64,000 nt of DNA from IMG/VR virus record IMGVR_UViG_3300028410_000746; one strand, given 5' to 3'. This document shows, in pieces, positions 609 to 55,308 of this stretch. This stretch comes from a virus. Taxonomy: Duplodnaviria; Caudoviricetes. Every line of letters starts with the position of its first letter. Within the stretch, counting starts at the first letter, position 1. The translations under genes and the position numbers were made by a program. The notes under the pieces were generated by a model. The model saw only the letters and a program-made list of their open reading frames with translations, did not search any database and was not told where the DNA came from.

Positions 609-648
609 ACTTGACTCGTATTTAACGTATCGTCGGGAAGGAAAGCGT

Positions 649-1455
649 TCAAAGGATGTTCATCGAGAGCTTCTTGCGGCGCGCCTTGGCCGCTGCTCGG
701 GCTTCCTTTGGCGTCTTGGGCTCGTCACTGGTGCCCTTGACGATCGGCGCCACGCCCTTGTAGAGCGAGCGCGCGGGCTGAGTCGCCTCAATGCTCAAGG
801 TCTCGAAATTCTCCGTGAGGTAGTCCGAGGCCTCCGGGCTCCACGCGAAGTGCCCCTCCACGTAGGGCTTGTTGTGTGCCGTCACCACCCAGGTGGGAGC
901 CCCCGCGAACCGGCGAATGCGCAGCGACTCCAGGAGCACCCCCGGCAACGCACGGTTGGAGTAGCTCGTCACTCCCAGGAAGACCACAACCAGCGAGGGG
1001 TCCTCTACCAAGTCCCTCAGGCTTGTGAAGGTCACCTGCGTCGACCCGCTGTCCTTGGAGGTCTCCTTGTCCTTGGAGAGCCACGCGTCGAGCATCTGGG
1101 AGTCGTTGGTCACGCGGTGGAAGAAGTTTGTCCCCTGGCAGATCAACGCGTGTCGCAGATGCGGCAGGAAGTCCCTGCGGTTGGCCTTGATGAAGAGCGA
1201 TTGATCCGTTCGGTCCTCAAAGGGCGAGCTTTTGAGAGGCTTCGCGTTGTAGATCTCATCTCCCAGGGAGTGCCTGTAGAGGTAGCGCAGCGTACACACG
1301 CACGGACGCTTGAAGTCCTTGGTGGTCCCCATTGAGATGTAGCCCGTCCCCGAGCAGACCTTGCAGTCATTCTCAGAGGCCGTCGGCGTCGCGAAATCCT
1401 GAACGCTCTTGCGCTCTTTGCTTGGCTTGTCGCCCTTGGTCGTCTTCGTCGTCAT
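649..1455 (-). CDS. DnaC/IstB-like helicase-loader-type protein
   Basis: N-terminal CKVCSGTG...RPCVC zinc motif followed by a degenerate AAA-like region; likely start MTTKTT at 1455. Confidence 0.5.
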   Translation of the reverse strand: MTTKTTKGDKPSKERKSVQDFATPTASENDCKVCSGTGYISMGTTKDFKRPCVCTLRYLYRHSLGDEIYNAKPLKSSPFEDRTDQSLFIKANRRDFLPHLRHALICQGTNFFHRVTNDSQMLDAWLSKDKETSKDSGSTQVTFTSLRDLVEDPSLVVVFLGVTSYSNRALPGVLLESLRIRRFAGAPTWVVTAHNKPYVEGHFAWSPEASDYLTENFETLSIEATQPARSLYKGVAPIVKGTSDEPKTPKEARAAAKARRKKLSMNIL

Positions 1456-1486
1456 AGGTTGGGCTCGTTCGTGTCGTATGCGGTGA

Positions 1487-3202
1487 TCAGGTGTCGTCGA
1501 GTGAGGAGACCATGGCGTCATAGAGCGCCTTGGTCTCCGAGGGGCCAAACACGAAGTCGTCTTCAGCCTCCTCATCGTTGCCAAGGAGGCGCGCCCCCAG
1601 CGCTCCCTCGATGTAACCCATCTTCTTGCTCAAGGTGTCGGATACGTGCTTGTCGATCGTCGCTTCGCCAAAGGGGCCCTCCGCGATAAGGTTCACAGCG
1701 TACACGGATTGATGAGGGGAGCCAATCCGAATCATCCGACCCACGAGCTGGAGAAGGTCCCCCGCGCTCCAGGGCAGATCAAAGAACACCATGACCCGTG
1801 CCTGCTGTAGGTTTATACCCTCAGCCCCGGCCATCGTCAAGAAGATAACCCTGGTGTCGTCAGTCTCCGTAAAGGCGCGTCGGGCTGCGTCGCGCTGGTA
1901 GGTGTTCTCTGAGCCGGTGACCCGAACCATCCCTTTCCCATCTTTGCACGCGCGAGGCTCCCAGGCGCGACCCTCCCCAGGCTCAATGCCCAGCTCGTAA
2001 TCACGCGCCACGAGGAGGTCCTGTAGACGGTCCACCATCTTGCGGAAGCGAGTGAAGACGATCACCTTCTCCTCCGCCAGCTCACCGTCGAGAAGCTCCA
2101 ACAGGAGGTCCACCTTCGGGCTCGCCCCTTCGTTGCCGATCAAGTAGAGGTCGTCCACGATCTCCTGACAGTAGATCAGCTTGGTGAGGTGGCTGGTCTC
2201 CACGGCTGCGTCGTCGGCGTCTGGATCGAACAGGCTCGCCTCGGCCACCATCTCGTGACTCTCGTTGACTGCCAGGAGACCCGCCACTGCGTCCTGGTAG
2301 TGTCGCCATTGATCACGACTCATCGAGACCTTGATCTCCTTGGTCGTCAAGACCGGCAGCTCCTTGGCGACCGTGTGCTTGGCTCGGCCAAGGTAGAAGG
2401 GGTCGATGCGCCCGCGAAACAGCTTGATGTGATCTCGCGTGTGTCCCACGATCATGGGCACCTTGCGTCCGCCCCCGATAGGTTGCATGCGAGTCACGCA
2501 GTAATTGCGCATGAACCCCTTCTCGGAGCTGAAGGTACCGGGCCGAACGACCGAGTAGATGCCGAACCCCTCCATGAGGTTGTTCTTGATCAGCGTCGCC
2601 GTGGCTCCGTAGACCCTCCAGGCGTTGTCCGCCAGACGTTTGGTCATGACGTGGGTGTTCGACTTGGGCGACTTCACCGCCGCAACCTCATCGAGCCAAA
2701 GGACGTACTGGCGACCTCCCAGGTGTGCCTTGAGCTTTCGGTAGTCGATTCTCAGCCGGGGGTAGTTCGTGATCAGGACGCTTGGGTTGTCGGGGTCCCA
2801 CGTCGAGAAGAACTCTTCGTAGACCTTCTCTCGCTGCTTGGCCGTACCGTCTACCATGAAGCAGCGAATGCCCGTGGTGAACTTGTCGAACTCCCCAGCC
2901 CACTGTCGAATCGCGCTCGTCGTCGTCACGAAGATCGGCACGAGGTTCGGCTCGCGTCCCCACAGGAGACACTGAGCCGCGATGGTCATGAGGCTCTTGC
3001 CCAAGCCCGTATCATCCCCGACCACGAAGCGCTTGCGCATGAGCAGGTGGAGGACCATCTGCTTCTGGTAGTGGCGCAGCTCGAAGGGCACGACGCTCCC
3101 ATCCTTGAGCGTCAAGGTTTCTCTCAAGAACGGTGTGTGGGGTAGCGTGATCTGCTCACACTCGCGGACGCGCTGGAGCTTCTCATAGGTCGAATCTGCC
3201 AT
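1487..3202 (-). CDS. SNF2-family (SF2) helicase/ATPase
   Basis: GDDTGLGKS Walker A, WLDEV Walker B, TATLIKNNL motif III, GAEGINLQQARVMVFFDLPWSAGDLLQLVGRMIRIG motifs V/VI. Confidence 0.9.
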   Translation of the reverse strand: MADSTYEKLQRVRECEQITLPHTPFLRETLTLKDGSVVPFELRHYQKQMVLHLLMRKRFVVGDDTGLGKSLMTIAAQCLLWGREPNLVPIFVTTTSAIRQWAGEFDKFTTGIRCFMVDGTAKQREKVYEEFFSTWDPDNPSVLITNYPRLRIDYRKLKAHLGGRQYVLWLDEVAAVKSPKSNTHVMTKRLADNAWRVYGATATLIKNNLMEGFGIYSVVRPGTFSSEKGFMRNYCVTRMQPIGGGRKVPMIVGHTRDHIKLFRGRIDPFYLGRAKHTVAKELPVLTTKEIKVSMSRDQWRHYQDAVAGLLAVNESHEMVAEASLFDPDADDAAVETSHLTKLIYCQEIVDDLYLIGNEGASPKVDLLLELLDGELAEEKVIVFTRFRKMVDRLQDLLVARDYELGIEPGEGRAWEPRACKDGKGMVRVTGSENTYQRDAARRAFTETDDTRVIFLTMAGAEGINLQQARVMVFFDLPWSAGDLLQLVGRMIRIGSPHQSVYAVNLIAEGPFGEATIDKHVSDTLSKKMGYIEGALGARLLGNDEEAEDDFVFGPSETKALYDAMVSSLDDT

Positions 3203-3231
3203 AACTTCAATCTCACGTATCGGAGGAGGCT

Positions 3232-3552
3232 TCAGCCCATTACCAGCTCATAGACGTAGTTCAAGAGCGCGCGGCGAGCCTCTCCTGCCGGGGGGTTCTG
3301 CATTGCATGCAAAATCTCCCCCTCGGTGACTCCGTGAGCCCGTGCCACGTCTCGCAGCTTCTTGTCGCACAGACGCGTGAACGCAGGCTCCATCTCTCGC
3401 GTCAACCACAGGCGGTAGGCCTCAAACGCTTCACGCTTGGGCCCCTCCTGATTCAAAGTACGCCGGCGCTTGATGGCTTCTATGGGACGCTGCTCCGCGC
3501 GCACCTTTCGTACGAGCTGGAGCATGTAGTCGTGATCGGGTGCAGTCGTCAT
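3232..3552 (-). CDS. Hypothetical protein
   Basis: 106-aa ORF in a co-directional operon. Confidence 0.6.
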   Translation of the reverse strand: MTTAPDHDYMLQLVRKVRAEQRPIEAIKRRRTLNQEGPKREAFEAYRLWLTREMEPAFTRLCDKKLRDVARAHGVTEGEILHAMQNPPAGEARRALLNYVYELVMG

Positions 3553-3631
3553 GGGGCCAGCTCACGTAGAGAGGGTGGCGGCCTTCGAGCTTGGAAGGCC
3601 GGGATGTGCATCTACAGGAGCCACAACGAGA

Positions 3632-4216
3632 TTACCGGGAGTTGCGCCTCACGTGACGCCACACCTCGATCGCCGACTCCCCGAACATCTCACTGGGGGC
3701 GGGCACCTCCAGTCGAGTCTCATGGAGAATCCCATCCGAAATGTTGGAGCGGGCTTGCACCTGATGAGAGATGAGCCCGCCCACCTCCTCAACCGTGAGC
3801 TGATGCTTGCGCCCATCGTTGTAATAGAACCCCGCCGAGATGAAGTCCTCGACGCACTCATGACTCAAACACTCTCGGATGACGTTGGAGGCGCCGAGGG
3901 TAGGCATCACGACGTCCAGCGCGAAGAGCGAGATGATGCGAACCGGCTTCAGGAGGTGGATGACCTCGTGGACCTTCTTCATATCGGTGAAGTCCAGACA
4001 GACGGCATCTCCCTTGGGGTGTTGGTCCGTCGGCTTGTAGACACTCGGCTCGCTGACGAGGCTCCGCCCGATCTCACACTGGCCGGCTCCCAGATCCAAC
4101 ACGCACCCACATGCAGGAGGTCCGAGTTGGCGAAAGGCTCGCTGATGACGTGGCTGCGACGCCTTCGCCCACGTGGCATAATCGCTCCAGAACTTGTCGC
4201 TCGCATGGGACATCAC
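3632..4216 (-). CDS. Class I SAM-dependent methyltransferase-like protein
   Basis: VLDLGAGQCEIG motif I; CLDFTD motif. Confidence 0.6.
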   Translation of the reverse strand: MMSHASDKFWSDYATWAKASQPRHQRAFRQLGPPACGCVLDLGAGQCEIGRSLVSEPSVYKPTDQHPKGDAVCLDFTDMKKVHEVIHLLKPVRIISLFALDVVMPTLGASNVIRECLSHECVEDFISAGFYYNDGRKHQLTVEEVGGLISHQVQARSNISDGILHETRLEVPAPSEMFGESAIEVWRHVRRNSR

Positions 4217-4286
4217 GGACTCCCTTCGTTACCACCTCTGAAGTTCTATCCGTAAAGGGTAGTCCCTCCCGTACGGGGGCGTCAAG

Positions 4287-4943
4287 TCAGTTGAAGGAGA
4301 GGCTGACTCCGAACACGGAGATGAGGTCTCCAGTGCCGTACTCCACTGCCGCACCTCCCAGGAGGCCGAGATTCTTGGTGAGGTCTACCCCCAGGCTCAG
4401 GCCTCCTTGCTTGAGTCCCGAGTGCGCCTGTACGTGAAGCATGCGCCAGTAGAAGGGCTCGAAGGCCAGCACCGGGTCGAACATCTCTCCAAGCTCTCCG
4501 CCGAGGTTGCTTGGGAGCCACACGAAGCCTAGCTTGACGCGAAGGCGAAAGCCCCACTCCGGGGCCACCGGGGGCTTCTGTTTGGTGACCGCCACGTTGT
4601 TGTCCACGCTGAACTTGAGCTTCCAGCGGCACCACCTCAGCTCCCCCTCCAGCTTGTCGTCGGTCAAGACTTGGCCATCTCGCGTGATCACGACCCGCTG
4701 GTCCTTGAACTCCATGTCCAGGTCCCCGGACTGGGCCGAGTCGATCATGCAGTTGTGGTTCTCGGCCACTTCGGACAGCTCGGCCGCCTGCGCGTTCGTC
4801 AGACACTTGTACCCAATAGGACACTCCGCAGGCGGCCGCTCCAGGGTGCGCAGCTCTCGCTCCTGAGCGTATACATCCTCCGCGACCAGGACGGTGTTGA
4901 GAAGGACCAGGAGGGCGGTCAGGAGGACGTACGAGCGTTGCAT
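4287..4943 (-). CDS. Secreted/outer-membrane protein, possibly spanin-like
   Basis: N-terminal signal peptide; C-terminal alternating beta-strands ending VFGVSLSFN; sits with membrane genes. Confidence 0.45.
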   Translation of the reverse strand: MQRSYVLLTALLVLLNTVLVAEDVYAQERELRTLERPPAECPIGYKCLTNAQAAELSEVAENHNCMIDSAQSGDLDMEFKDQRVVITRDGQVLTDDKLEGELRWCRWKLKFSVDNNVAVTKQKPPVAPEWGFRLRVKLGFVWLPSNLGGELGEMFDPVLAFEPFYWRMLHVQAHSGLKQGGLSLGVDLTKNLGLLGGAAVEYGTGDLISVFGVSLSFN

Positions 4944-4951
4944 GGGCTACC

Positions 4952-5491
4952 TCACTTGAGCGCGTCCAGAATGTCCTTGGATACGCGTTTGGGACCTTCG
5001 ACCACGGTGATCTCGACCTTGCCGGGCTTGGTCAGGATCACCGTGTCAACGTCCGTGTCTTTGACTCCAGTTGGAAGGCGCAGCTTCTTGGTGGAAGCCT
5101 CCCCTTCTTCGGTCTCGGGGACCGCGACCTCCAGGACGTTACGGTCCCGGAAGGGGTTGCGTCTGCGGTCGACTACGGTAACCTCTCGCTGTACGAATCC
5201 TTCGTCGTCAGGCTCGCCCACTTCGATCGGCTCGCCGTCTTTCTGCCGACCCTCAGGCACACGGTTCACCTGCACCTCAAGGCTGGGCACGTCTTCTGCC
5301 TCGTCCCGGCCAAAGAGCCACCCCAGTACGCCGCCCACGTTGAACGCATCACCCACCCCGAAGAGGAGGAGGACTACCGCCACGACCACGACCACGAGAG
5401 CAATCACGAGTGCCAGAGGGTAGCGCAGCGTATAGTTCCAGACCGTGAGGCCCCACCGCTTGATGCGGCTCCATGCGGTCTCATCACTCAT
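4952..5491 (-). CDS. Single-pass membrane protein, possibly i-spanin-like
   Basis: Long hydrophobic helix LALVIALVVVVVAVVLLLFGVG near the N-terminus. Confidence 0.5.
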   Translation of the reverse strand: MSDETAWSRIKRWGLTVWNYTLRYPLALVIALVVVVVAVVLLLFGVGDAFNVGGVLGWLFGRDEAEDVPSLEVQVNRVPEGRQKDGEPIEVGEPDDEGFVQREVTVVDRRRNPFRDRNVLEVAVPETEEGEASTKKLRLPTGVKDTDVDTVILTKPGKVEITVVEGPKRVSKDILDALK

Positions 5492-5954
5492 GGTAGTCGT
5501 CCGTACGGTCGTCCACGAAGGGAGAGTCCACGAAGGTCACCTTGGGCGGCGAAGGACGGAGGACGTCCTCAGCGCGTGCGAGGCTAAAGGGCATCGTGGA
5601 GGCTGAGTCCGCCTGTGGAAGCGAGATCTGAGGTACCAGCGCAGCAGTGGGCGCAGCAGTGGGCGCCGCAGCGGGAGCTGCTGGACCAAAGATGGGCGTG
5701 GCCTGTGATCCACGGGCTCCCAGTCGACCTCGCATGATCTCGGCAAGAGGGCCCGAGAGCTTCTTGCCGAAGTTGTAGGCGAAGAGGACGAGCAGGATGT
5801 CGAACATCGTGTTCGGCACCGCCTTGGTGGCGGCCCAGAACCAGATGTGGGCTCCAAACACGACCCAGCACATGAGGCGGCCCATGCTCAACTCGTTATT
5901 CTCAATGAGGACGGCGCCCCACTTGACGGCTTTGATACGGTCCCACATGGTCAA
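5484..5954 (-). CDS. Holin-like membrane protein
   Basis: Two hydrophobic segments (LMCWVVFGAHIWFWAA; MFDILLVLFAYNFG) then a basic KK and a low-complexity tail. Confidence 0.5.
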   Translation of the reverse strand: MTMWDRIKAVKWGAVLIENNELSMGRLMCWVVFGAHIWFWAATKAVPNTMFDILLVLFAYNFGKKLSGPLAEIMRGRLGARGSQATPIFGPAAPAAAPTAAPTAALVPQISLPQADSASTMPFSLARAEDVLRPSPPKVTFVDSPFVDDRTDDYHE

Positions 5955-7120
5955 CTCTCCTCAGTATGATAGGGTAAGTGCAGGTGCAAGGTCGTACCCT
6001 CTCCAACGGTGCTCTCCGCGTCGATAGTACCACCTGCACTGCGCACAAAGTGATAAACGAAGTACAACCCCAGACCCGAGCCTGTATCCACGTCTCGCGT
6101 GGTGAAATACGGAGTGAAGACTTGCTTGAGCGTGTTGGCGTCCATGCCACACCCGTTGTCCGTAAAGCTCAGGACGATGCAGTTCGGGTGGTGGGGCTTG
6201 TTACACATGTGCGTAAGGATGCGTATGGACGCCTCCTCTTCCAGGCCCTTGGTGGCACGCATGGCGTTGTCGAACAGGTTGGTCAAGACTTGGGAGAATC
6301 GGGGCCCGGACATCTCAATGAGCTTGTCTTGAGCGAGGTCATTCTCCATCGAGAACACCCCCACATAGCGCTTGGTGGGCTCCACGAAGCTCATTGTCTG
6401 CACGTAGTTGTTGAGCGCATGTCCCAGATCAAGGAAAGCCCCCTGGGGAGCCGTCAGCTCACGCATGGGAGCGGTCATGTCGTTGAGGATCTGTGACATT
6501 CGCAGGAGCGCCGTCCGGGTGCCCTCAAGAGAGGTAGAGAGGTCGACGTCTTCGGACTCCGAGGAGATCTCCAGGAGGTCAAGGTATCCGCGAGCGGTAG
6601 CCAGAGGCGTCTTTAGCTCGTGGTTGAGACCGAAGAGCATGATCTGAAGCCTCTCCGCCCACTTGTGCTCCTCCTCTGCCAGGATCACGGCGTGTGTCGC
6701 CGCTACCTCGATGAATATGATCAGTGTCGCCCCAAACGCATCATGCCGATAGAAGCGTACGAGATGCTCATCGGAGCGTCCCTTGAGGTAGAGACCTTTA
6801 ATGAGCATCGGCTGGCGGAACTCCCCCAGGGCAAAGAGGGTGTCCAGGAGGGTATGGCAATCCTCCCGCACAAAGTCGTACAGGGAGCAGTACCCAAGCT
6901 CGTCCAGGGTGAGACCTACGTACTCCAGGGCCGGGGGGTTGGCGTGGAGGAGGTCTGCGTTGAAGTCGGTCTGGAAAATGACGGAGACGTTCTCATAGTA
7001 GCTGGCGAGACTTGCAACCACCTCCACGCCCTCGGAGAGATGACGATCCTCAGGCGGCCTTCGCCACATGCCTCGCCACTTCTTCCAGAAACGACCGAGC
7101 TGCGAAATGGTCTTTCTCAT
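5951..7120 (-). CDS. PAS-domain sensor histidine kinase (start may be ATG 7069)
   Basis: PAS-like ANPPALEYVG; H-box LNHELKTPL; N-box LTNLFDNAMRA; G1 DNGCGM; F-box VFTPYFTT; G2 GSGLGL; no transmembrane helix. Confidence 0.95.
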   Translation of the reverse strand: MRKTISQLGRFWKKWRGMWRRPPEDRHLSEGVEVVASLASYYENVSVIFQTDFNADLLHANPPALEYVGLTLDELGYCSLYDFVREDCHTLLDTLFALGEFRQPMLIKGLYLKGRSDEHLVRFYRHDAFGATLIIFIEVAATHAVILAEEEHKWAERLQIMLFGLNHELKTPLATARGYLDLLEISSESEDVDLSTSLEGTRTALLRMSQILNDMTAPMRELTAPQGAFLDLGHALNNYVQTMSFVEPTKRYVGVFSMENDLAQDKLIEMSGPRFSQVLTNLFDNAMRATKGLEEEASIRILTHMCNKPHHPNCIVLSFTDNGCGMDANTLKQVFTPYFTTRDVDTGSGLGLYFVYHFVRSAGGTIDAESTVGEGTTLHLHLPYHTEES

Positions 7121-7430
7121 AGATCCGCTCTCCCGTGGCCGAGGCGGCCCGATACTCAGGGCTTTGGGGGTGACACCCGGTCAAGAATATGACCGGGCAC
7201 GTATGGCCCTCTTCCCGTAGCCAATGGTAAAACTCCACTCCTCCAGTGCCGTTGATGATCAGATCAATGACCACGCAGTCCGGGTCGTTCCCCGCTTCGG
7301 AGAGGCTCTCCTTGGCCAGTCTGATGGCGTGCGCCTTCTCAGTGCACACCTCCACGTCGTAACGCAGGGAGAGGATGGACTTGAGCATGCTCGCCATCTC
7401 GGTATCGTCTTCGATTACCAGGACCTTCAT
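7050..7430 (-). CDS. Stand-alone receiver-domain response regulator (CheY-like)
   Basis: MKVLVIEDD acidic pocket, VVIDL phosphoacceptor Asp, IFLTG Thr, YEK Lys. Confidence 0.9.
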   Translation of the reverse strand: MKVLVIEDDTEMASMLKSILSLRYDVEVCTEKAHAIRLAKESLSEAGNDPDCVVIDLIINGTGGVEFYHWLREEGHTCPVIFLTGCHPQSPEYRAASATGERIYEKDHFAARSFLEEVARHVAKAA

Positions 7431-7434
7431 AAGA

Positions 7435-7875
7435 TCACTTCTCTCTCTGGGGACCCTGCACAGGAAGTGCAGGCTCTTGGTCGTTAGTCTTGCTCTCCAC
7501 CTTCTGAGTCGCAGCGGCCGTCTGGAGGTCCACCGTCTTCATGAAGTAGGTCGTAAGGCTGCCGACCAGGAGCAGGATGATGGGCCATAACCACTTCATG
7601 GTCTTGATGGAGCCGTTGATCTGCTGCAAGGTCGCCGTGTTTGCCATGACGAGCTTGGTGATCTCCTTGCGGTCCTCAATGTCTTGCTCCAGGGTCTGCT
7701 CGACCGACTGGAGCTTGAGCGTCATCTGAGACTGGTTCTCGGAGACCTCCTCAAGACCGGACCCGAACGACTCAAAGCGCTTGAAGATCTGATCGTCACG
7801 TGTCTTACGGACGGACCTCTCCGCCGTAAGGCGCTCTTCGAGACGTGTGAGCCTCTCCCTTCCCTCTTCATTCAT
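7435..7875 (-). CDS. Coiled-coil protein with C-terminal transmembrane helix (XhlA/holin-like)
   Basis: Heptad-rich N-terminus followed by KWLWPIILLLVGSLTTYF. Confidence 0.5.
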   Translation of the reverse strand: MNEEGRERLTRLEERLTAERSVRKTRDDQIFKRFESFGSGLEEVSENQSQMTLKLQSVEQTLEQDIEDRKEITKLVMANTATLQQINGSIKTMKWLWPIILLLVGSLTTYFMKTVDLQTAAATQKVESKTNDQEPALPVQGPQREK

Positions 7876-8045
7876 TTGGGGCCCCCTTCGCGTCGCAACA
7901 GGGTGCGAGCTTGGTCGGTTTGGTGTCGGATCTCATCCGTCATACCTTCCTTGACTGCCCTCGTCTTCAAGTATACCAAACGACCTTTGGCCCATTCTAC
8001 TGCGCGAGTACCTCTCAAATCAGTGGCACGGAGCTTCCTTGACAT
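7872..8045 (-). CDS. Small basic hypothetical protein (57 aa)
   Basis: AAGGAGG RBS then ATG (MSRKLRATDLRG...); its TGA overlaps the next ATG (ATGA); below the ORF-track cut-off. Confidence 0.55.
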   Translation of the reverse strand: MSRKLRATDLRGTRAVEWAKGRLVYLKTRAVKEGMTDEIRHQTDQARTLLRREGGPK

Positions 8046-8075
8046 GGGGCCCTCCTTTACGGTACCCCCAAGATG

Positions 8076-11000
8076 TCAGGGGCAATCCGGGTCGATTCCC
8101 GGCGTCAGAGGATCACGAGTATCCGCGACCTCAATATCATCAGGCCGGGGGAGACGTCGCCCTCCCTGAACCAAGGGTCGACCCTCGATTCGGTACCGGT
8201 CGACGGCGTTGCTGCCCTCTCCCAGACCTGTCGGGTGGGTCTGTAGTACCAAATCCATAAACTCATTAGTGAGGGCCCCGGACGTGTCAAGCTCCTTGCC
8301 CAAACGCAGGCCCGTAGCGATCACGAGCTGAAGCTCGTCACCATAGCTGACCTGCCTCTCACTGGTCGTGACGCTCTGCTTCTGAACACGCACGAGCAGC
8401 GCAACCCCCAGGAGGGCTCCGCCGTGCATTGAGAGGTCCTCAGGGCGAGGCGAAGCGAGGTATCCAAGGTCCTTGGAGACGCGTGGGCCCGAGAGCGTCA
8501 TTGCGCCTCCAGGGTTACGACCACTGGCTACCGTCGCCGTGCCGCCACGGTAGGTGCGGTAGAGCAGGAAGTTCGGGTCGTACCCAGTAAGGGCTGCCGA
8601 GCCCGCCGCCGTACCATCCGAGAGCAGCAACGCTCCGTCAAGCCACGTCTTCGAGAGCGCGCGGTCGTAGCGGTAATCACCCGGCACGTCCAGAGATACG
8701 CCAGGAGTGAAGAAGCGCTCGGCAGATCGCCCGAGACCCTCTCCGAGGAAGTGTGCGTCCGAAGCGAGGATACCCAGGGGCAACCGCTCGGTAGCTCCCA
8801 GCATCTGCGCTCCCACGTAGCGGGCGATGGTCACTCCTCCAGCCGGAGCCGGGTGAGCACGAACCTTGGACGGGATCGGGGCGTCCGCAGCAGACGTGTA
8901 GGGGTAGGCGGCCAGCGAAAGGTAGCCCACGTCCGTGTAGCTTCCCGAGACCACCGGGCCCGAGAGCGCCCCGGTTCCCAGCGTCGTGACGAAGGGGAAA
9001 GAGGCTACGATCTCCACAACCCCAGGGTTCTCCACGCGCGCTTGAGATGGGTCCTCAAAGGGCTGCCCAAGCTGCGTGATCTGCGTGGGGTTCTCCGAGG
9101 TACGCTTGGGCACGTAGTCAAGCAGCTCCACGCTGCCCGTGTCCGTGGTCGAGATGGGCATGGTGCCGTAGATAGCTCCCTGGTAGGGGATACGCGTGGA
9201 GACGACCGAGATCTGGTCTCCCGCCTCGGCAGGTCCCGGTACGAAGAGCTGGTAGCTCCTGTCCGCTGTGCCTGCACCTGCCAAGCGATGCACGCGCGTG
9301 TAGTCCTGCGTCCAGTCGTCGAAGAAGAAGGCCGCGAACTCGAAGACGAGCGGGCTGTCCACCAGCTCTCCTCCCAGGTAGGACATGTCCAGGACGTCCT
9401 CCGGGATCACGAAGGTGTTGTTCTGCGTGATGATGAAGCTGCGGCGCTCTCCGTCCTCGCGCAAGAGGTTGTCACGCCCCACGCCCGAGTCCGTACGGAA
9501 CGGCGCTGCGGCCGTGTCCGAGAAGTTGGAGACGCCGGGGCTGTCCGTGTAGAAGTCCTCCTGCCTGTAGACGGCGAAGAGGCGCGCGATGCCGTAGTTG
9601 GCCGGGATCTCAATACCCCGCACTCCACCCGCATTGTAGTAGCGACACGCGAGCGCGTTGACACCACCAGGGCCTCCGCCCACGCCGGAGAGGTCGGGGT
9701 AGGTCCCGAAGTCTCCCAGGGTCAGGTTGAGCGGATCATAGACCGCCACGACCCGCTGCTGAATGAACGGGGCGTTGACCGACTGCGAGCCGGAGAGGAA
9801 CAGGTGGTTGATGCCGTACGCAGGAGCGGTCGATGTGGCCGTTCCTGCGGCGCGTGAGCGTACGAAGGGCACATCATGGCGTCCCAGTGCCCCTCGAAGC
9901 TCGCGAGGCACCAGAAGCGAATCTGAGCCCGGTGTGAGATTGAACAGGCCGGTCACGTCCGAGTAGCTGCGCGCCGAGGGGACCGGCTGTGGGTCCATGC
10001 GTGCCGAGATGTTACGCATCGGCTGGTAGATCAGCGTCTTCGAGCCGGGATCAACATAGGCCTCTCCCCATACCGTCTCGGGCGTCTCAGGCTCACGAAG
10101 CGAACGCACAGGAGTTTGAGCGTTGCGCAGGTGCGGGTACGACTCGCCGGGGAGCACGTTGGAGCGTCGAATGTTCGCGGTCGGGCTCGCTGCTTGGTTC
10201 GCGAACGTGTTCTCGCGCACGAAGAGTGACGGGGTGGCCGCGTCAAGGTCAACGTAGAGGCTGACCTCCGGAGAACGCGCCAGACCCTGGACCGGATGGT
10301 AGAGCAGGTCATGCGAGAGGTAGAGGGCCGAGTCGGTCGCGGCCGTACGGCCCGACGCCAGCGCGATGAACAGGCTGTCGTCAGTCTCCGAGCACTGCTC
10401 CAGGTAGAGACCCCAGGTACGGTTGGTCGTGCCGCCCGTATCAAAGCCGGGTGCTCCGCCGTCCGGGGTCTGAACCACAAGAGCACCTCCCGCCACGTGC
10501 CCTACGACCCGGAACGCGCCGTGGTTGAGGGGACGCGTCGAGGTAGGGTCAGTGCCGGGAGTGAGCAGCAAGAAGGCCCCCGCCTCCAGGATGGCGTCAA
10601 TGTCTGCGCTAAAGTCCAGGCTCACGTCTACCGTGCCCCCTGCCGGACCTTGAATCGACGTGGCCGAGTTGGCGAACGTGATCGCGGTCGTACCCGAAGA
10701 CGCGACCGAGAGGCCGTCAAGAGGCGTACCCAGGACCACGAAGTCTGGATCAACGTCGCCGCTGCTGGTCGAGTACGCGTCCCGACGATCAGGGTCCGCG
10801 CTATCCGGGTCCGTGTCCCCGTACCATACGCGCACGGGCGCGTGCGTGGTCCCGTCGTACTCGTAGGGATGGACGAATCGGACCTTCTGGTCGTTGACCG
10901 ACGCGAACGTGTTGCGGTACTGGTCCAGTGCGATGGCGACCACATCACGAGGGTTCCAGTTCTCGGCCGCCGCCGAATCCTGACGGAAGATGTCCACCGT

Positions 11001-12500
11001 CGGGTTGAAGGGGAGGTCCGAAGAGTTCTGAGTCGACCCGTTCGATCCCAGGACGACCAAGTTGTCCGGCTGGAGCACGCACGCATCCGAGAACACGCGA
11101 CGGAACCCGTCAGGAGCGTCCCCCTTGATCTGGAAATCAGGAGCGACGGCAGAGCCTCCGAGGTAGTCCACCTGGAAATGGCGCGTCCCCTTCACGCCTG
11201 CTGAGGAGCGCTTCCAGGTCGTCTGCATCTCTCCCTTGAGAACGCGGCCGAGGTTGTGCTTGAGGAGCCCGTCAAAGTCGACCGGGCCCATGCCCACGAC
11301 GTGTCGGAGATCGTGGATGTCGTCGGCCACGACCTGATCGCTGAACAGGCCCAGAGGGTGTCCAGTGACGTGGAGAATCTGTGCTCCGATGGCATGGTTC
11401 GTAGCCACGGTCCCACGGTCACCGCGCGTCGCCAGGGTCAGCGTGTTGCCTACATAAGACGTGTAGGCCATGACCTCGCCATCAACCTTGATCAGACCTC
11501 CGCCCGAGTTGAACGTCGTAGAGGACGCCACGGTGTCCACGCTCAAGGAGAGGTCAGTGGGTCCAACAGCTCCCGTCAGCGTGATCGTGGGGAGCACGCG
11601 CGCCTGAGTACGGTCACTGGCAGAGGGATTACGGTTGACCGCACCCGCCTGTGCCAGGGCTGACCAGTTCGCCGTCGAGCGGCGGAAGACGAAACACAGG
11701 GGGATGGCGTAGACGTAGCCGTCCACGGTGCCAAGGAGCCCGTTGCTTCCATCGCCATCACCCGCGCGCCAGAGGCCTGCATCGCCCAGCGTGTCACACT
11801 GGTTGGTGAACGTGTAGAGAGCGTTGGCCGAAGCCGTGGGCACGTCCAGCGTGCCTTGAGCTTTGATCTGCGCGTTGAAACCGAAGGGGTTGAGCGTCGG
11901 GTTCACGGCAGAGACAACACGCAAGCGGTACTGGATCTGTACGCGCTCCGTGGTCTCAATCCCGATGGCCGGGTCGAGGAAGTCCTGTACGGGGTTGGTG
12001 CCTCCGTACTCGACGTTGCCGTAACGCCAGACCGTATCCACGCCGGGCTTTGAGGCCGTGCCTGAGGGAGCGATCTGCGCCTTCCACACCTCCAGGAATA
12101 CGAAGTTGACGTCTGCGTCGGTGGTCGTGGCCTGAGGAGGCGGGAGCGTGATCGCGTTACGCGTGCCGACGTTCCCTGTCCCGATCACGGGAATCATCCA
12201 GCCGTTGACGTGGGCCCAGATGATGTCTCCGTCGTCCCCGGAGGTCTCCTTGCCCAGCCAGAACAGGTTCGAGGCCTGCGTGGACGTCTCGAAGTCGTCT
12301 GCGGCTCGGATAGGGTCCCCGATGAACCCGGAGGGGATGTTGGCCTTGATGAGCGCGCGGCGAGCCTCTTCGCTGATCTGAGAGAGCAGGTTCAGCTCCG
12401 AATCCAGCGGCGGCCGGTTCTTCTGAAAGACCGGCGAGAGGAAGTTGCGAGCCTGCGCGGTCAACGTGCGGGAGACGCCTTCTCCAAGAAAATCGGTCAT
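8076..12500 (-). CDS. Large virion baseplate/tail structural protein
   Basis: 1474 aa, G/T/S/D-rich; N-terminus (GVSRTL...VFQKNRPPLDSELNL...NGW) paralogous to 19555-22131. Confidence 0.7.
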   Translation of the reverse strand: MTDFLGEGVSRTLTAQARNFLSPVFQKNRPPLDSELNLLSQISEEARRALIKANIPSGFIGDPIRAADDFETSTQASNLFWLGKETSGDDGDIIWAHVNGWMIPVIGTGNVGTRNAITLPPPQATTTDADVNFVFLEVWKAQIAPSGTASKPGVDTVWRYGNVEYGGTNPVQDFLDPAIGIETTERVQIQYRLRVVSAVNPTLNPFGFNAQIKAQGTLDVPTASANALYTFTNQCDTLGDAGLWRAGDGDGSNGLLGTVDGYVYAIPLCFVFRRSTANWSALAQAGAVNRNPSASDRTQARVLPTITLTGAVGPTDLSLSVDTVASSTTFNSGGGLIKVDGEVMAYTSYVGNTLTLATRGDRGTVATNHAIGAQILHVTGHPLGLFSDQVVADDIHDLRHVVGMGPVDFDGLLKHNLGRVLKGEMQTTWKRSSAGVKGTRHFQVDYLGGSAVAPDFQIKGDAPDGFRRVFSDACVLQPDNLVVLGSNGSTQNSSDLPFNPTVDIFRQDSAAAENWNPRDVVAIALDQYRNTFASVNDQKVRFVHPYEYDGTTHAPVRVWYGDTDPDSADPDRRDAYSTSSGDVDPDFVVLGTPLDGLSVASSGTTAITFANSATSIQGPAGGTVDVSLDFSADIDAILEAGAFLLLTPGTDPTSTRPLNHGAFRVVGHVAGGALVVQTPDGGAPGFDTGGTTNRTWGLYLEQCSETDDSLFIALASGRTAATDSALYLSHDLLYHPVQGLARSPEVSLYVDLDAATPSLFVRENTFANQAASPTANIRRSNVLPGESYPHLRNAQTPVRSLREPETPETVWGEAYVDPGSKTLIYQPMRNISARMDPQPVPSARSYSDVTGLFNLTPGSDSLLVPRELRGALGRHDVPFVRSRAAGTATSTAPAYGINHLFLSGSQSVNAPFIQQRVVAVYDPLNLTLGDFGTYPDLSGVGGGPGGVNALACRYYNAGGVRGIEIPANYGIARLFAVYRQEDFYTDSPGVSNFSDTAAAPFRTDSGVGRDNLLREDGERRSFIITQNNTFVIPEDVLDMSYLGGELVDSPLVFEFAAFFFDDWTQDYTRVHRLAGAGTADRSYQLFVPGPAEAGDQISVVSTRIPYQGAIYGTMPISTTDTGSVELLDYVPKRTSENPTQITQLGQPFEDPSQARVENPGVVEIVASFPFVTTLGTGALSGPVVSGSYTDVGYLSLAAYPYTSAADAPIPSKVRAHPAPAGGVTIARYVGAQMLGATERLPLGILASDAHFLGEGLGRSAERFFTPGVSLDVPGDYRYDRALSKTWLDGALLLSDGTAAGSAALTGYDPNFLLYRTYRGGTATVASGRNPGGAMTLSGPRVSKDLGYLASPRPEDLSMHGGALLGVALLVRVQKQSVTTSERQVSYGDELQLVIATGLRLGKELDTSGALTNEFMDLVLQTHPTGLGEGSNAVDRYRIEGRPLVQGGRRLPRPDDIEVADTRDPLTPGIDPDCP

Positions 12501-12543
12501 GATCGGGTGCTCACTCTAGTGTGTAAGGGCCGTCGCCCCTACC

Positions 12544-13179
12544 TCAGTAGAGGAGGGCGAGCGACCCGATGTAATAGCGCTGGCCGGGCGTGCTGTTCTC
12601 AAAGCGTACTCGGAGCTGATTGCCGGACCCCGCGAGTAGCTCAGGGGTCAGGTGTGTCACCTGAGTATACGTCGCGCCATCATCATTGGATACAAAAACA
12701 TCAACAAGGTCTGGCTCGACTCGCTGATAGACCACCTCGGAGGTGCGCGTGCCCGTTCGCGTGAGCGTGTACAGATCCCAGTACACCGCGAAGTCCTCGA
12801 AGAGGCCGTCCGCCGAGACGTCAATCGTATCCGTCTGCAAGCGTCCGTTCTGCGCCCCTACTGGATCATAAGCCGCCAGGAATGCCCTGTAGACACCAAC
12901 ACCTCCCATGATGTCCGGGTCCGTGAGGTCCCAGACGCCGGCCGTATCCAGCTCATCGAAGAAGATGTTGGTGTAGCGAGGCGCGAGCGCCAGCAACGCC
13001 GCGAACTTCTGATCTCTCAGCTCATCGGAGTCAAAAGGGACCACCGACTCGTCGATAGAGAGGTCGTCCGGGACGTCAACCACACGAAAGCCCTGGACAG
13101 ATACGCCCGTGAGGCGGGAGTAGCTGGCCTTGATTTGAGAGGTCGCGCGGTCAAGCAGGTAGAACGGCATGGCAATCAC
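12544..13179 (-). CDS. Putative virion structural protein
   Basis: 211-aa beta-rich ORF between tail genes. Confidence 0.55.
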   Translation of the reverse strand: MIAMPFYLLDRATSQIKASYSRLTGVSVQGFRVVDVPDDLSIDESVVPFDSDELRDQKFAALLALAPRYTNIFFDELDTAGVWDLTDPDIMGGVGVYRAFLAAYDPVGAQNGRLQTDTIDVSADGLFEDFAVYWDLYTLTRTGTRTSEVVYQRVEPDLVDVFVSNDDGATYTQVTHLTPELLAGSGNQLRVRFENSTPGQRYYIGSLALLY

Positions 13180-13206
13180 ACCCTGTAGAAAGAGGAGAAG
13201 GAACGA

Positions 13207-22970: not shown

Positions 22971-23364
22971 GGGAACATCCCCACGTGCGTGGGGAAGGGA
23001 CCTGATGCCCGCGCGTCATGATCTCGGCCACGGGGACATCCCCGCGTGTGCGGGGAAGGGTCGTGTGCCCCCTTCGCGAAGGTCTTTCCGACGGGGACAT
23101 CCCCGCGTACACGGGGAGGGGCTAGCGGCCTCACCCGCGCCCGTTGAATGGACGGGAACATCCCCGCGTGTGCGGGGAGGGGCTCTAGGATACTATGATA
23201 CTTCTTTTCAAAGTGGGAACATCCCCGCGTGTGCGGGGAGGGGGTGCCTGCGGCTCCCGCGAGGCTGACGAAGCTGGGGACATCCCCGCGTACACGGGGA
23301 GGGGGACGGCTCGACCGGGACAGCCTCCGGGACCGGGGGACATCCCCGCGTACACGGGGAGGGG
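22971..23364 (-). CRISPR. Type I-E-like CRISPR array 1: 7 repeats of 29 nt, 6 spacers (31 nt leader-proximal, then five of 32 nt); no cas genes
   Basis: Repeats at 22971, 23032, 23093, 23154, 23215, 23276, 23336; minus-strand consensus CCCYTCCCCRYRYACGYGGGGATGTYCCC with the TCCCC..GGGGA hairpin; 61-bp period. Confidence 0.97.
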
Positions 23365-41978: not shown

Positions 41979-42068
41979 GGGGACATCCCCGCTCGCGCGG
42001 GGAACACCGCAGGTAGTGGGCCTCGTCGCAGATGATGACCGGAACATCCCCGCTCGCGCGGGGAACAC
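41979..42068 (-). CRISPR. Type I-E mini-array 2: 2 repeats, one 32-nt spacer
   Basis: Leader-proximal repeat GTGTTCCCCGCGCGAGCGGGGATGTTCCG (42068-42040), close to the E. coli I-E repeat; trailer repeat 42007-41979; spacer 42008-42039. Confidence 0.93.
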
Positions 42069-42089
42069 TCTTCAAATGTTCAGTATACC

Positions 42090-42102: not shown

Positions 42103-42191
42103 CATAAGAGGAATCCTGTTGGCATAGGGTGCGTCGGTTTACTTTACCAAATCGTACCCTGTGGTACAAGCTCCCAAGAGCGACTAAGCGG

Positions 42192-42221
42192 ACCTTACTA
42201 CAAGCTCTCTCCGGCTGTCAA
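42192..42221 (-). promoter_or_regulatory. Sigma70-type promoter of array 2
   Basis: TTGACA-N18-TAAGGT. Confidence 0.65.
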
Positions 42222-42345
42222 GAGGTTTGCAGCTCTTTCCACATGCGGTACATGTGGGCGCGGATGCGGTCATAAGAGTCCGTGTCGCCTTTTTGAGCGA
42301 TGCCGCGACCCTGGAGCGTGAGGAACACCTCTCCAAAAGCCTCAT

Positions 42346-42498
42346 GGGGACATCCCCGCGTACACGGGGAAGGGGTCCAGGTCAGGCACACGGGCCGTAC
42401 GGGAGTGGGGACATCCCCGCGTACACGGGGAAGGGTGCTACTAGACTCCGGGGTGCATGGCGGTGCGCAGGGGACATCCCCGCGTACACGGGGAAGGG
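42346..42498 (-). CRISPR. Type I-E mini-array 3: 3 identical repeats, 2 spacers (34 and 32 nt)
   Basis: CCCTTCCCCGTGTACGCGGGGATGTCCCC at 42346-42374, 42407-42435, 42470-42498. Confidence 0.95.
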
Positions 42499-42638
42499 TC
42501 TGTGCCAAGAAGTCACAGGGTAGGGAACACGTAAGTATTCGGTTTTCAAAGACTTTCAGGGTTCAGTGTCAAAGAGCGTCACCCTTGGGCGACCTCTCCG
42601 ACGTCCTTATGGTAACCACACCTAAGAGGGCCTGTCAA
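42499..42638 (-). promoter_or_regulatory. Leader and promoter of array 3 (homolog of the array-1 leader)
   Basis: TTGACA (42638-42633), 18 nt, TACCAT (42614-42609); same 140-bp geometry as 23365-23504. Confidence 0.8.
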
Positions 42639-43171
42639 GCGCCGCGCAACGGTCGAAACGTCAAGTTGATGCGAGGCTCAGAGACACGGGCACGCTTGGG
42701 GAGGCTGTGCTCCCACTCGCGCTGAGTCCCCGCAGGCATGACGAGAAGGCTGCCGTCCGTGAGCGCGAAGGAGAGCTTCTCCTTGTGGTCCACCTTGCGG
42801 CGCATCTTGAAGTCTCGGGCAGCTCCAAACGACAGGGAGGCGATCACCGGGTCATCCCCGAACAGCGGCTCATCGTCCGCGTGCCAGCCAATGCGGTCCG
42901 AGCCGTCCCGGTAGAGGTTGGCCAGCATCGTGGGGAGCTTGCAACCCACATGAGCCTCGACCTTCTCCTGGAGCGACTTGAGGAGAGCAGAAGGAAGCTC
43001 CCGAGCCCCCCACTGTAGGTTGGAGTACGTGTAAGAGACCGGACCGTACCACGCAGTCAAGCGAGGCTGTGGGTGCTCTTTGCCGTAGACCACAATCATG
43101 CGCTGTTCAAAGGCGAGCAGACTGCGCAGCTCCTCGAAATCCATCTCCACGAACTGCTCTATCAATTCCAT
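42635..43171 (-). CDS. alkB: AlkB-family 2OG-Fe(II) oxygenase (ALKBH2/3-like)
   Basis: QPRLTAWYG, NLYRDGSDRIGWHADDE (HxD), IASLSFGAARDF, GSLLVM, WEHSLPK, RINLTFR. Confidence 0.92.
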   Translation of the reverse strand: MELIEQFVEMDFEELRSLLAFEQRMIVVYGKEHPQPRLTAWYGPVSYTYSNLQWGARELPSALLKSLQEKVEAHVGCKLPTMLANLYRDGSDRIGWHADDEPLFGDDPVIASLSFGAARDFKMRRKVDHKEKLSFALTDGSLLVMPAGTQREWEHSLPKRARVSEPRINLTFRPLRGA

Positions 43172-43227
43172 CACGGTGCTCCAGGGCAAAGGGTGATGAG
43201 CTACCCTAGCCCGAAGAGAGCGTAAAG

Positions 43228-43602
43228 TCAACCGGCAGACAGCACCAAGCGCCAGATCGTCCACGCACACAGGAGGTGGTACGTGTTGTCGACGATGATC
43301 ACGGACCACGGCCCCATGTTGTCACGGAACCCCGTCTGACCTGCCTTACCCATCCAGGCGGCGGCGAGACGGTAGCGGTCGACCGGGTAGTGCGTGGCCC
43401 AAATGGCAGCGTAGGCCCACCACGGCCAGACATCCCCCATGACCCAGGTGAAGCAGACAAACATCAACGTATAGAGCGTCACATGCACCAGACACGCTGC
43501 CGTGCCCTCCCAGGTACGTGCGCTCTTGTTCTGCGCCATCCAGTCGTTCTGGTAGACGTAATCACCCACGAGGTGAACCAGAATAAGAGTACCCATATCC
43601 AT
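43228..43602 (-). CDS. DUF3307-family membrane protein
   Basis: HLVGDYVYQNDWMA..K...HVTLY...THYPVD...DNTYH motifs. Confidence 0.8.
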   Translation of the reverse strand: MDMGTLILVHLVGDYVYQNDWMAQNKSARTWEGTAACLVHVTLYTLMFVCFTWVMGDVWPWWAYAAIWATHYPVDRYRLAAAWMGKAGQTGFRDNMGPWSVIIVDNTYHLLCAWTIWRLVLSAG

Positions 43603-43880
43603 TACCGAACCTTCGCTTTGGAGGTCTCAAGCACGTACAGCGCCTGAAACAGTGATGTCCCGCCCGCTGTCTCTGGCCCACCCAGAGGACCGGGGTATAC
43701 CACGTCACCACTCTTCGCGTCCAACACAGCGAAGAAATTCTTCCACTGGATGGGAGATACGGGACCCGGCTTCTTGGGAGTTCCCCACTCGCAACGGTAA
43801 TACGGGGTTCCATCCTGGAGGGTGCCTGCACGCGAGGCTGTGAAGCCGTCGTCGCGATGGAAGGTAAAGGGGTAGACCAT
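43602..43880 (-). CDS. Hypothetical protein
   Basis: 92 aa; its TAA overlaps the next ATG. Confidence 0.55.
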   Translation of the reverse strand: MVYPFTFHRDDGFTASRAGTLQDGTPYYRCEWGTPKKPGPVSPIQWKNFFAVLDAKSGDVVYPGPLGGPETAGGTSLFQALYVLETSKAKVR

Positions 43881-43982
43881 CTAACTCTCGCAAGGTATGA
43901 GGTATGGGCGCTCGGGAGGCTTACTTCCCGCTCTTGGGCATGGTCACCTTGATCGTCCACACCGGAGGCTTGCCGTTACGAT

Positions 43983-44011
43983 AGGGACATCCCCGCGCGT
44001 GCGGGGAAGGG
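43983..44011 (-). CRISPR. Solitary type I-E repeat unit 1 with its own promoter
   Basis: CCCTTCCCCGCACGCGCGGGGATGTCCCT; no second repeat at +/-61 bp. Confidence 0.85.
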
Positions 44012-44026
44012 CCGGGCGCATCGACA

Positions 44027-44055
44027 ATGCTACCACACCCTGAAAGGGGCGTCAA
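44027..44055 (-). promoter_or_regulatory. Extended -10 sigma70 promoter 15 nt upstream of the solitary repeat
   Basis: TTGACG-N17-(TG)G-TAGCAT. Confidence 0.75.
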
Positions 44056-44060
44056 GTCCC

Positions 44061-45647
44061 TCACTCCACGGGTCCCAGGATCTCCTGGACGGTACCGAAG
44101 TTGGTGACGAGGAAGCGCACGGGGGCTCCTACCGTGTACCGTTGGAACTCCCCGTAGTCAACGGTGAGGGTCTGCGAGTACGGCGTATCACCCTCCTGGA
44201 ACCCCAGAGTAAGCTCATAACGCGCCGTGCGGCGTTCGCGCTCCAGCGGCCCCAGTGACCCCTTGGGCCAGCGAGCCGGTCTCTTGGTTCCTGCGGAGTT
44301 ATGACGGTCGGAGTCGATCCAGCGTTGCGTGGCGTAGCTGCACCACTGCTGCGGGATGGAGCGCTCGCAGATCTTGTCCACGGTATCGGAGCTGTGAATG
44401 GCCACCTGCTTCGAGCGCGTACACGTGTCAGGCACGCTGTCATAGACCGTACGCGAGCAGGTTGAAGAGACACTACGGGAGCAGTATCTGGGGGAGCAGG
44501 AGCGCGACGCGCTGCCCTTGCTCGTGCGGGACGTAGAGCACGTCTCGCCGCACTGATAGGACTCCGACTTGGAGCATGAATAGCTCTCCTGTCGAGACAC
44601 CTTCTTGGTGCACGAGTAGCTCTCCGTCTCCGTCCTCATGTGCGTACACGACACCTGCTTGGTCCCACACACGTAGTCCTGGTAATGGTGGTGCTTCATG
44701 CGACAGGACTGCACGCGAACTCCCGCGCGCGCGCCTGAGCCGTTGACGGGCTTGACCTCTCTCCGCTCGCTCAGACTCATCTGCCAGTCTTCGTCGACTA
44801 CAGGCGTCCACCGCTGCTCCTGGATCACCCTCTCCCAATGCAGCGACTCCACCTCTCCCGTGACCTCATGGGTCTGGAAGCCCCAAACGGTCGTACCCAG
44901 GACAAGCCCGAGGACACTGATCGCAGCCCCGCCGCCCTTCTGCTTCGGGCTCATGGATGAAAGGCGGGCCAGCTTGGGGACCTTTGGCGGGGAGTCCTCG
45001 GACGGCATACCCGACGTATCCTCGGAGGCCTTCTTGACAGGCTCTTCCTCCTCCAGGAACGCGTTCTCGGAGATCACCGAGCTGGGAAGGTCCTCGTCGC
45101 TCCATTTTGGGCGCGCGACATGACCCTGTGACTGCATCTCTTCTTTGAACGCCGAACGGCCCTTGTTGGCCGCTTCGAGCTGGTCCTCGTGCTTCGCGTC
45201 CGCGTCAAAGGAGAGGCCGTGTGCTGCACGCATACCCGCGAAGGCGCCGAACTGCTCCACGAGGTCCGCTGCGACACCCTGTTCGCCGTCCATGTAGGCC
45301 TGGAATGTACGGTAGTCGAGAGCCTCACGAAGCTGCTCATCCGAAGCACCGCGAGGCGCTGCGCAGTGGTGACACTCCGTCTCATCCCCGTAGTTGTCCC
45401 CCGTGCAGTTCGTACAGAACCAGCTCGCGCCAACGTCTGCGAACCGTGCCGTGTCTTCTTGGGTCCACGCGCGCTCTTCATGACCATGACTGGCCCACGA
45501 CTCGTCATCGCCAGGGAGATACGCCCCATCAAACTCTTCAAAGGTCCGGGCATGCGCGCACTCGGGGCATGTGCGATGGCGAGGACTACACGGGATACCC
45601 ACATGTCCGCAATCCGAACAGTCCCACATCAACCAGTAGTCACTCAT
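44061..45647 (-). CDS. Zinc-finger, transmembrane, Cys-rich exported-domain protein
   Basis: WDCSDC...CPEC and WFCTNC...CHHC fingers; helix AISVLGLVLGTTVWG; then many periodic Cys/Ser/Thr repeats. Confidence 0.7.
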   Translation of the reverse strand: MSDYWLMWDCSDCGHVGIPCSPRHRTCPECAHARTFEEFDGAYLPGDDESWASHGHEERAWTQEDTARFADVGASWFCTNCTGDNYGDETECHHCAAPRGASDEQLREALDYRTFQAYMDGEQGVAADLVEQFGAFAGMRAAHGLSFDADAKHEDQLEAANKGRSAFKEEMQSQGHVARPKWSDEDLPSSVISENAFLEEEEPVKKASEDTSGMPSEDSPPKVPKLARLSSMSPKQKGGGAAISVLGLVLGTTVWGFQTHEVTGEVESLHWERVIQEQRWTPVVDEDWQMSLSERREVKPVNGSGARAGVRVQSCRMKHHHYQDYVCGTKQVSCTHMRTETESYSCTKKVSRQESYSCSKSESYQCGETCSTSRTSKGSASRSCSPRYCSRSVSSTCSRTVYDSVPDTCTRSKQVAIHSSDTVDKICERSIPQQWCSYATQRWIDSDRHNSAGTKRPARWPKGSLGPLERERRTARYELTLGFQEGDTPYSQTLTVDYGEFQRYTVGAPVRFLVTNFGTVQEILGPVE

Positions 45648-45674
45648 AGCTCTACTCCTATTCTTCAAGGGGCC

Positions 45675-55279: not shown

Positions 55280-55308
55280 GGGACCATCCCCATGTGCGTG
55301 GGGAATCG
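55280..55308 (-). CRISPR. Solitary type I-E repeat unit 2
   Basis: CGATTCCCCACGCACATGGGGATGGTCCC; no partner repeat nearby. Confidence 0.7.

Follow-up and report, generated by a model that had tools for sequence, protein, structure and literature searches.

A huge phage from lake water, with a genome of 373 kb, carries between two of its genes a single type I-E CRISPR repeat which has a promoter consensus just upstream, stands alone in its surroundings and is followed by no terminator; cognate cas genes and arrays are present on the same contig. Quite possibly, though the assignment is tentative, the phage's own type I-E CRISPR system includes this repeat as a spacer-less, short-leader unit whose promoter also serves the operon behind it, and such a piece of the phage's own system is more likely than a decoy directed at the host. 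All positions given here refer to the 64,000-nucleotide stretch of DNA that was analysed ("the window"), and the features discussed are collected in table 1.

Table 1. Features of the lone-repeat locus, the other CRISPR loci of the window, and the cas genes of the phage
Feature	Position in window	Strand	Remarks
-35 hexamer TTGACG	44050-44055	minus	promoter scans; starts 6 nt past stop codon of upstream 535-aa gene
Extended -10, TG-g-TAGCAT	44035-44034 (TG), 44032-44027 (TAGCAT)	minus	promoter scans
Solitary type I-E repeat CCCTTCCCCGCACGCGCGGGGATGTCCCT	43983-44011	minus (44011 to 43983)	29 nt
32 nt in spacer position, ATCGTAACGGCAAGCCTCCGGTGTGGACGATC	43951-43982	minus	no detectable target
Weak hairpin CGGGA-AGUAAGCC-UCCCG	43913-43930	minus	no U tract
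535-aa Cys-rich zinc-ribbon protein	44061-45668	minus	upstream gene
92-aa ORFan	43602-43880	minus	first operon gene; stop overlaps start of next gene
DUF3307 membrane protein, 124 aa	43228-43602	minus	second operon gene; Pfam 1.6e-10; PHROG 2470
AlkB-like 2OG-Fe(II) oxygenase	42635-43309	minus	third operon gene; Pfam 5.2e-28; PHROG 21963
Array C promoter TTGACA-18-TACCAT	42638-42609	minus	
Array C	42346-42498	minus	3 repeats, 2 spacers, long leader
Array B	41979-42068	minus	2 repeats, 1 spacer, short leader
Array A	22971-23364	minus	7 repeats, long leader
Second lone repeat CGATTCCCCACGCACATGGGGATGGTCCC	55280-55308	minus	in tRNA cluster
Cas3			HD plus helicase domains
Cas7			PF09344
Cas6e			PF08798, full length, 81 bits
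Cas5			PF09704
Cas8e, 735 aa			PF09481

The lone repeat folds into a 7-bp stem (44007-44001 paired with 43996-43990) closed by a tetraloop and followed by the 8-nt handle AUGUCCCU (43990-43983). This fold has a free energy of -14.3 kcal/mol (z = -3.14), and not one of 200 shuffled sequences was as stable. Its geometry is that of the genuine array repeats of the window, and the lone repeat fits an alignment of 18 repeats of the phage in which the stem is paired in 98.3% of the cells, G-C and A-U pairs show compensatory changes, and U-G wobbles pair on the minus strand only. A single I-E repeat had been claimed at this place in an earlier note on this DNA, and the 29-mer with its array-like fold is indeed real. 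By analogy with the Cas6e proteins of E. coli and T. thermophilus, a cut would be expected between G43991 and A43990.

When both strands of the 100-nt flanks were aligned with the repeat, only 14-17 of its 29 positions matched (48-59%; null mean 15.2), and there is no repeat of >70% identity within 100 bp on either side. The repeat is intergenic on a mobile element, in the 180-nt gap between the ORFs at 44061-45668 and 43602-43880, and where at least 90% identity over at least 90% of a known repeat is asked for in such searches, it has 27 of 28 positions in common with array repeats of the same genome; the promoter consensus, which ends 15 nt before it, lies well inside the 250 bp usually searched. 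SRUFinder (PMC10651486) asks for an intergenic repeat that has no partial copy within 100 bp and has a promoter no more than 250 bp away, and by that standard the repeat is on its sequence a true solitary repeat unit (SRU). Its solitude, which had also been claimed, thus holds locally, where the flanks are at the level of the null, but not for the window as a whole, which contains 14 repeats at five loci, all in the same orientation (the 13 others being those of three arrays and one decayed lone copy). At the locus itself there are no two repeats separated by a spacer. A candidate for a second, decayed repeat at a 61-nt period was rejected, as direct reading gave 8 matches in 29, and a 47-aa ORF that crosses the repeat (43921-44064) is regarded as spurious.

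The promoter has the layout TTGACG-17-TGgTAGCAT, and from the usual distance of ~7 nt a start is predicted near 44020, 9 nt before the repeat; the extended -10 promoter with a start about 9 nt upstream that the earlier note described is therefore a real consensus with a reasonable estimate of the start. Sigma-70-like sites show no general excess in 101.7 kb of the phage (15, against 11.9 in shuffles). Five of the 15 stand directly upstream of a CRISPR unit, so the link between promoter and repeat is not due to chance. Four of these five are promoters of long-leader arrays (three TTGACA-18-TACCAT and one TTGACA-18-TACAGT), where the first repeat follows 109-129 nt past the -10 box, as against ~14-15 nt at the lone repeat. 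The same promoter had been called dedicated to the repeat, and this is doubtful, because nothing separates the repeat from the downstream operon, which the transcript should enter; probably the promoter is not there for the repeat alone. Nor is there a terminator between the 535-aa gene and the repeat, and read-through from that gene is possible.

The repeat is preceded by 49 non-coding nt, and 103 nt separate it from the ATG of the 92-aa ORF. A GC hairpin had been placed about 45 nt downstream of the repeat; its letters are present (CGGGA-AGTAAGCC-TCCCG in the DNA, 43930 to 43913), but it starts 52 nt past the end of the repeat and is weak, with -9.1 kcal/mol and 22 of 200 shuffles as stable. 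The best fold of the whole leader excludes it, and that fold is itself no better than those of shuffles (z = -0.57). As the hairpin is weak and has no U tract, it was rejected both as a terminator and as a degenerate repeat hairpin, and a terminator scan of the minus strand found nothing. With a weak hairpin, no U run after it and no terminator, the transcript should continue from the repeat into the three genes of the operon. The leader also contains a 6-codon mini-ORF, MPKSGK (43921-43941, minus strand, with its ATG at 43941), which is preceded by AAGGTG and whose stop codon falls within the loop of this hairpin; the mini-ORF may have arisen by chance.

The first gene of the operon has its highest GC3 in its own frame; its 92-aa product gave no family and no atlas lead in Pfam, PHROG and remote searches, where there were two marginal remote matches only. 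No Pfam or PHROG match beside the repeat suggests an Acr or Aca protein. At the far end of the operon the promoter of array C overlaps the stop of the AlkB-like oxygenase gene, and array C, which starts 1,484 nt downstream of the lone repeat on that strand, would offer Cas6e its next site after the operon. Since nearly all genes of the phage lie on one strand with short gaps between them, any CRISPR unit will automatically stand before a gene.

A type I-E system is encoded by the phage itself. The source contig (ENA ERZ27315555:k141_181878; 373,477 bp), which overlaps the window at 1-13202 with 0 mismatches, is phage-like and carries PolA, DnaB and a tRNA cluster; its cas locus lies ~77-85 kb from the lone repeat, on the same strand, in the order array, 122-aa zinc-ribbon gene, 88-aa gene, Cas3, Cas7, Cas6e, Cas5, Cas8e, array. 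Neither Cas1 nor Cas2 was seen in the stretches of the contig that were read (101.7 kb for the scans and, with the cas operon, ~111 of 373 kb). The Cas6e has a glycine-rich RNA-binding loop and a His47 within the motif YTAHQFVWDLF; phmmer aligned its residue 36 to residue 9 of CasE, and His47 would presumably sit opposite the catalytic His20 of E. coli CasE. The cas-adjacent array repeat, CCCTTCCCCGCACACGCGGGGATGTCCCC, is identical to the lone repeat at 27 of 28 positions. We infer that the lone repeat would be a cognate substrate that the phage's own, divergent Cas6e could cleave, and with the cas genes on the same contig and repeats this similar, an RNA containing the lone repeat would meet this Cas6e first.

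One of the arrays of the cas locus, array 1 (locus L053 5861-6592, about -32060 to -32790 in window numbering), immediately precedes the cas operon and shares its strand. A further lone repeat stands just before array 1's own promoter, and between the degenerate last repeat of array 1 and the first gene, the ribosome-binding site falls within a 13-bp inverted repeat. The phage has two families of repeats (L053 15298-15754 versus the window arrays), which have the same hairpin and handle and differ at their 5' ends: these read CCCTTCCCC or CCCCTCCCC in most arrays and GTGTTCCCC in array B and in the array after cas8e. The GTGTTCCCC form is one loop base from the repeat of a cellular-type I-E array with Cas6e and Cas1 found in a metagenome (locus L023, in the order Cas6e-Cas1-array), whose hairpin and handle are as in the phage and which has no link to the phage; the phage Cas6e is only 25% identical to the cellular one, which serves a near-identical repeat.

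Arrays A, C and 1 have a ~140-nt leader with TTGACA-18-TACCAT, a AGTCTTTGAAAAC block and a GGCACAGA junction, and all of these elements are absent at the lone repeat. In array B a -10-like box precedes the first repeat by 13-15 nt, the spacer is a real one, and a stretch of 17 nt with a ribosome-binding site separates the end of the last repeat from the ATG of a 164-aa gene. The second lone repeat of the window has lost one stem pair, its handle is altered, and no sigma-70-like promoter was found upstream of it; it looks like a decaying copy. The lone repeat under study, unlike that copy, is undecayed, and this may reflect selection on some separate function. Its surroundings showed no similarity beyond the 28-nt repeat to other CRISPR leaders or flanks in 101.7 kb, and as nothing outside these 28 nt is alike, an origin from an array has left no direct trace.

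Three observations on these loci may be added. The spacer of array B (42008-42039, minus strand) reads VIICDEAHYL in one frame, which is helicase motif II (the DEAH box); its target may be a conserved helicase gene of a rival phage, and no protospacer for it was present in the window or the fetched loci. The third spacer of array A (23183-23214, minus strand) is AT-rich and contains CTTTGAAAA, a block also found in the long CRISPR leaders of the phage, which could be a coincidence or a spacer against a rival's leader. The tRNA cluster includes a tRNA with anticodon CTA (51742-51814, minus strand), which would read the TAG stop codon.

Comparison with other genomes yielded no close relative. 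Searches of phage records with the region and its flanking proteins (megablast and tblastn) gave no match, viral contigs contained no relative of the 535-aa or the 92-aa protein, and pattern scans of metagenome and GTDB contigs returned cellular I-E arrays and single chance matches without bringing up a close relative or the contig of the window itself. Homologues of the 535-aa protein are at most 58% identical and occur in huge-phage contigs or in cellular ones, and none of their gene neighbours is shared with the phage; in the huge-phage contigs the next gene follows within 0-25 nt, which leaves no room for a repeat. No repeat was found at the locus of a DUF3307 homologue. Outside huge phages, the 535-aa protein has its nearest homologues (53-54% identity) in cellular-looking contigs beside two-component and lipid genes, and a more distant one (49% identity) is labelled Myxococcota; the homologues in cellular contigs weakly hint at the host lineage.

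Within the population, contigs of the source sample bridge the lone-repeat locus unchanged and with a single repeat. A related sample has a different 36-nt insert between the repeats of array B (41984-42069), and the source sample contains a second version of an array C spacer (42345-42435), so the arrays vary in the population and the lone repeat does not. A joint from 42171 to 43987 is supported by 26 repeat letters only and was taken as a repeat artefact.

If the lone repeat is part of the phage's own system, the following course of events can be proposed. A host-type RNA polymerase would start at TTGACG-17-TGgTAGCAT and read into the operon for the 92-aa, DUF3307 and AlkB-like proteins. 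The phage Cas6e would bind the repeat hairpin and cut after the last G of the hairpin, giving a ~30-nt hairpin RNA that would retain one Cas6e, and an operon mRNA that would begin with the 8-nt handle and have a 5'-OH end. No guide RNA would be formed, because there is no spacer and no second repeat; these would either have been lost or never have been present, and the layout is otherwise like that of array B.

The earlier note had taken the locus for a Racr-like inhibitor of the host I-E Cascade, that is, for an RNA that would soak up the Cas6e, and perhaps the Cas7, of the I-E system of the host or of a rival phage and so lower interference. Viral SRUs and Racrs were defined by Camara-Wilpert et al. 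2023 (PMC10651486), and the anatomy that defines a Racr, an SRU with a promoter in a phage, is present here; the SRUFinder criteria are matched in spirit, two I-E Racrs have been shown to work (PMC10651486), and a cellular-type I-E locus whose hairpin and handle agree with those of the phage is present in a metagenome (L023). A Racr should, on the other hand, have no association with cas genes, and here the complete set Cas3-Cas7-Cas6e-Cas5-Cas8e and arrays of the same repeat are on the contig, so that a decoy would compete with the phage's own crRNAs. RacrIF1 inhibits through the ~50 nt released upstream of the Cas6 cut, on which a filament of 8-9 Cas7f is nucleated (PMC10651486), whereas the 5' tail predicted before the present hairpin is ~13 nt. 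The locus lacks a terminator, no adjoining gene is recognisable as acr or aca (such neighbours are frequent at Racrs but not obligatory), and no array with the CCCTTCCCC form of the repeat turned up in those GTDB species genomes that matched the pattern. The claim of an inhibitor of host Cascade is thus unsupported, and we consider a decoy of this kind unlikely. Another proposal is a CreR- or Cracr-like regulatory guide, in which the handle and the next 32 nt would be loaded into Cascade with no 3' hairpin behind them and would repress a promoter to which they pair in part. RNA-seq has revealed an I-E Cracr in which a 5' handle and a short spacer-like part are followed by a long 3' tail left unprocessed (10.1101/2024.10.29.618823), and Shmakov et al. 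(PMC10120712) point out that a lone repeat may in some cases be a mini-array with a decayed second repeat. Such cr-like RNAs have two repeat-like sequences on either side of a short spacer-like one, and no second repeat-like sequence lies within 100 nt here; they also match a cas or toxin promoter at 9-10 or more PAM-proximal positions, and no such match was found in ~111 of 373 kb, where the best PAM-proximal matches of the 32 nt are 8-10 nt long, lie without exception in coding sequence and have no AAG PAM. Shuffled guides do equally well in about half of the trials. The search for complementarity to cas promoters that had been suggested was thus negative when run on the phage's own cas operon, and the 32 nt had no target in the window, the 101.7 kb with the whole cas operon and the gaps between its genes, the viral contigs, the phage records or the fetched loci. 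A regulatory guide is improbable on these grounds.

It has also to be considered that the lone repeat is a selected mRNA-processing signal, in which Cas6e cleavage gives the operon mRNA a 5'-OH, handle-tagged end and so couples the stability or translation of the message to the CRISPR proteins of the phage; as a variant, the three-gene message could be cut out between the lone repeat and array C like a giant spacer. An intact repeat between a promoter and a first gene fits this idea, as do the last repeat of array B, with a ribosome-binding site between it and the start codon 17 nt on, and the position of array 1 directly before the cas operon on the same strand; in addition, 5'-OH ends made by Cas6 outlast triphosphate ends (PMC10651486). 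The force of these positions is reduced by the arrangement of the phage genes, which with one strand and short gaps puts any CRISPR unit before a gene, and the fold of the leader is no more stable than those of shuffles. We give this reading only a small share of the probability, and a smaller one still to its general form, in which lone repeats with promoters of their own would be natural Cas6e punctuation marks that control the mRNA ends, stability or translation of accessory operons. That the repeat is a chance palindrome unrelated to CRISPR is refuted for practical purposes: GC-rich genomes do yield many single chance matches to the hairpin pattern, but this one has the 27 of 28 identity to the phage's own repeats, handle included, and the core pattern occurs 13 times in the window where 0.66 matches are expected. 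The preferred reading is still, tentatively, the spacer-less unit of the phage's own system.

Such a unit resembles several known arrangements without being the same as any of them. Like a viral SRU or Racr, it is one intergenic phage repeat with a promoter just upstream, which Cas6 would bind and cut; unlike a Racr, it is in a phage that encodes the cognate Cas6e, Cascade, Cas3 and arrays of the same repeat, its upstream product is predicted to be very short, its transcript should enter an operon, and no acr genes are recognisable near it. It shares with the single repeat units and mini-arrays of cas loci (PMC10120712; CreR/CreA) a near-identity to the repeats of the system in the same genome, but it is ~77 kb from the cas operon and has no second repeat and no cas-promoter match. 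With the minimal I-E locus of the E. coli acquisition studies (leader plus one repeat) it has in common a promoter region, one repeat and no spacer; the ~140-nt leader is absent, 49 non-coding nt stand before the repeat, and cas1 and cas2 were not seen in the parts read. Engineered Cas6/Csy4 sites in mRNA leaders place a hairpin between a promoter and a gene, where it sets the 5' end of the mRNA. Those sites have the layout of the lone repeat but are synthetic, and a natural use of this layout in the phage is put forward here as a hypothesis. The compact arrays and the interference module with no nearby Cas1 or Cas2 are like those described for huge-phage CRISPR-Cas systems in the sections of Al-Shayeb et al. 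2020 (PMC7162821) drawn on here, and these sections make no mention of scattered lone repeats far from the cas locus. Phage lone repeats, Racrs, lone repeats in cas loci and huge-phage CRISPR systems without cas1 are already known (PMC10651486, PMC10120712, PMC7162821, PMC11656645); in the present variant a lone repeat with a promoter stands at a great distance from the cas locus, and the phage has the cognate machinery.

Lone phage repeats are currently read as decoys against host immunity. If the present one is only a spacer-less remnant, it shows how CRISPR units of phages spread and decay where adaptation genes are missing; if the phage does use it, CRISPR RNA processing would have been recruited for gene expression. 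The punctuation-mark reading, if true, would give the CRISPR repeat a role outside immunity and would be a natural counterpart of the engineered Csy4 insulators. Either way, the whole genome should be checked for cognate cas genes before lone repeats are named anti-CRISPRs.
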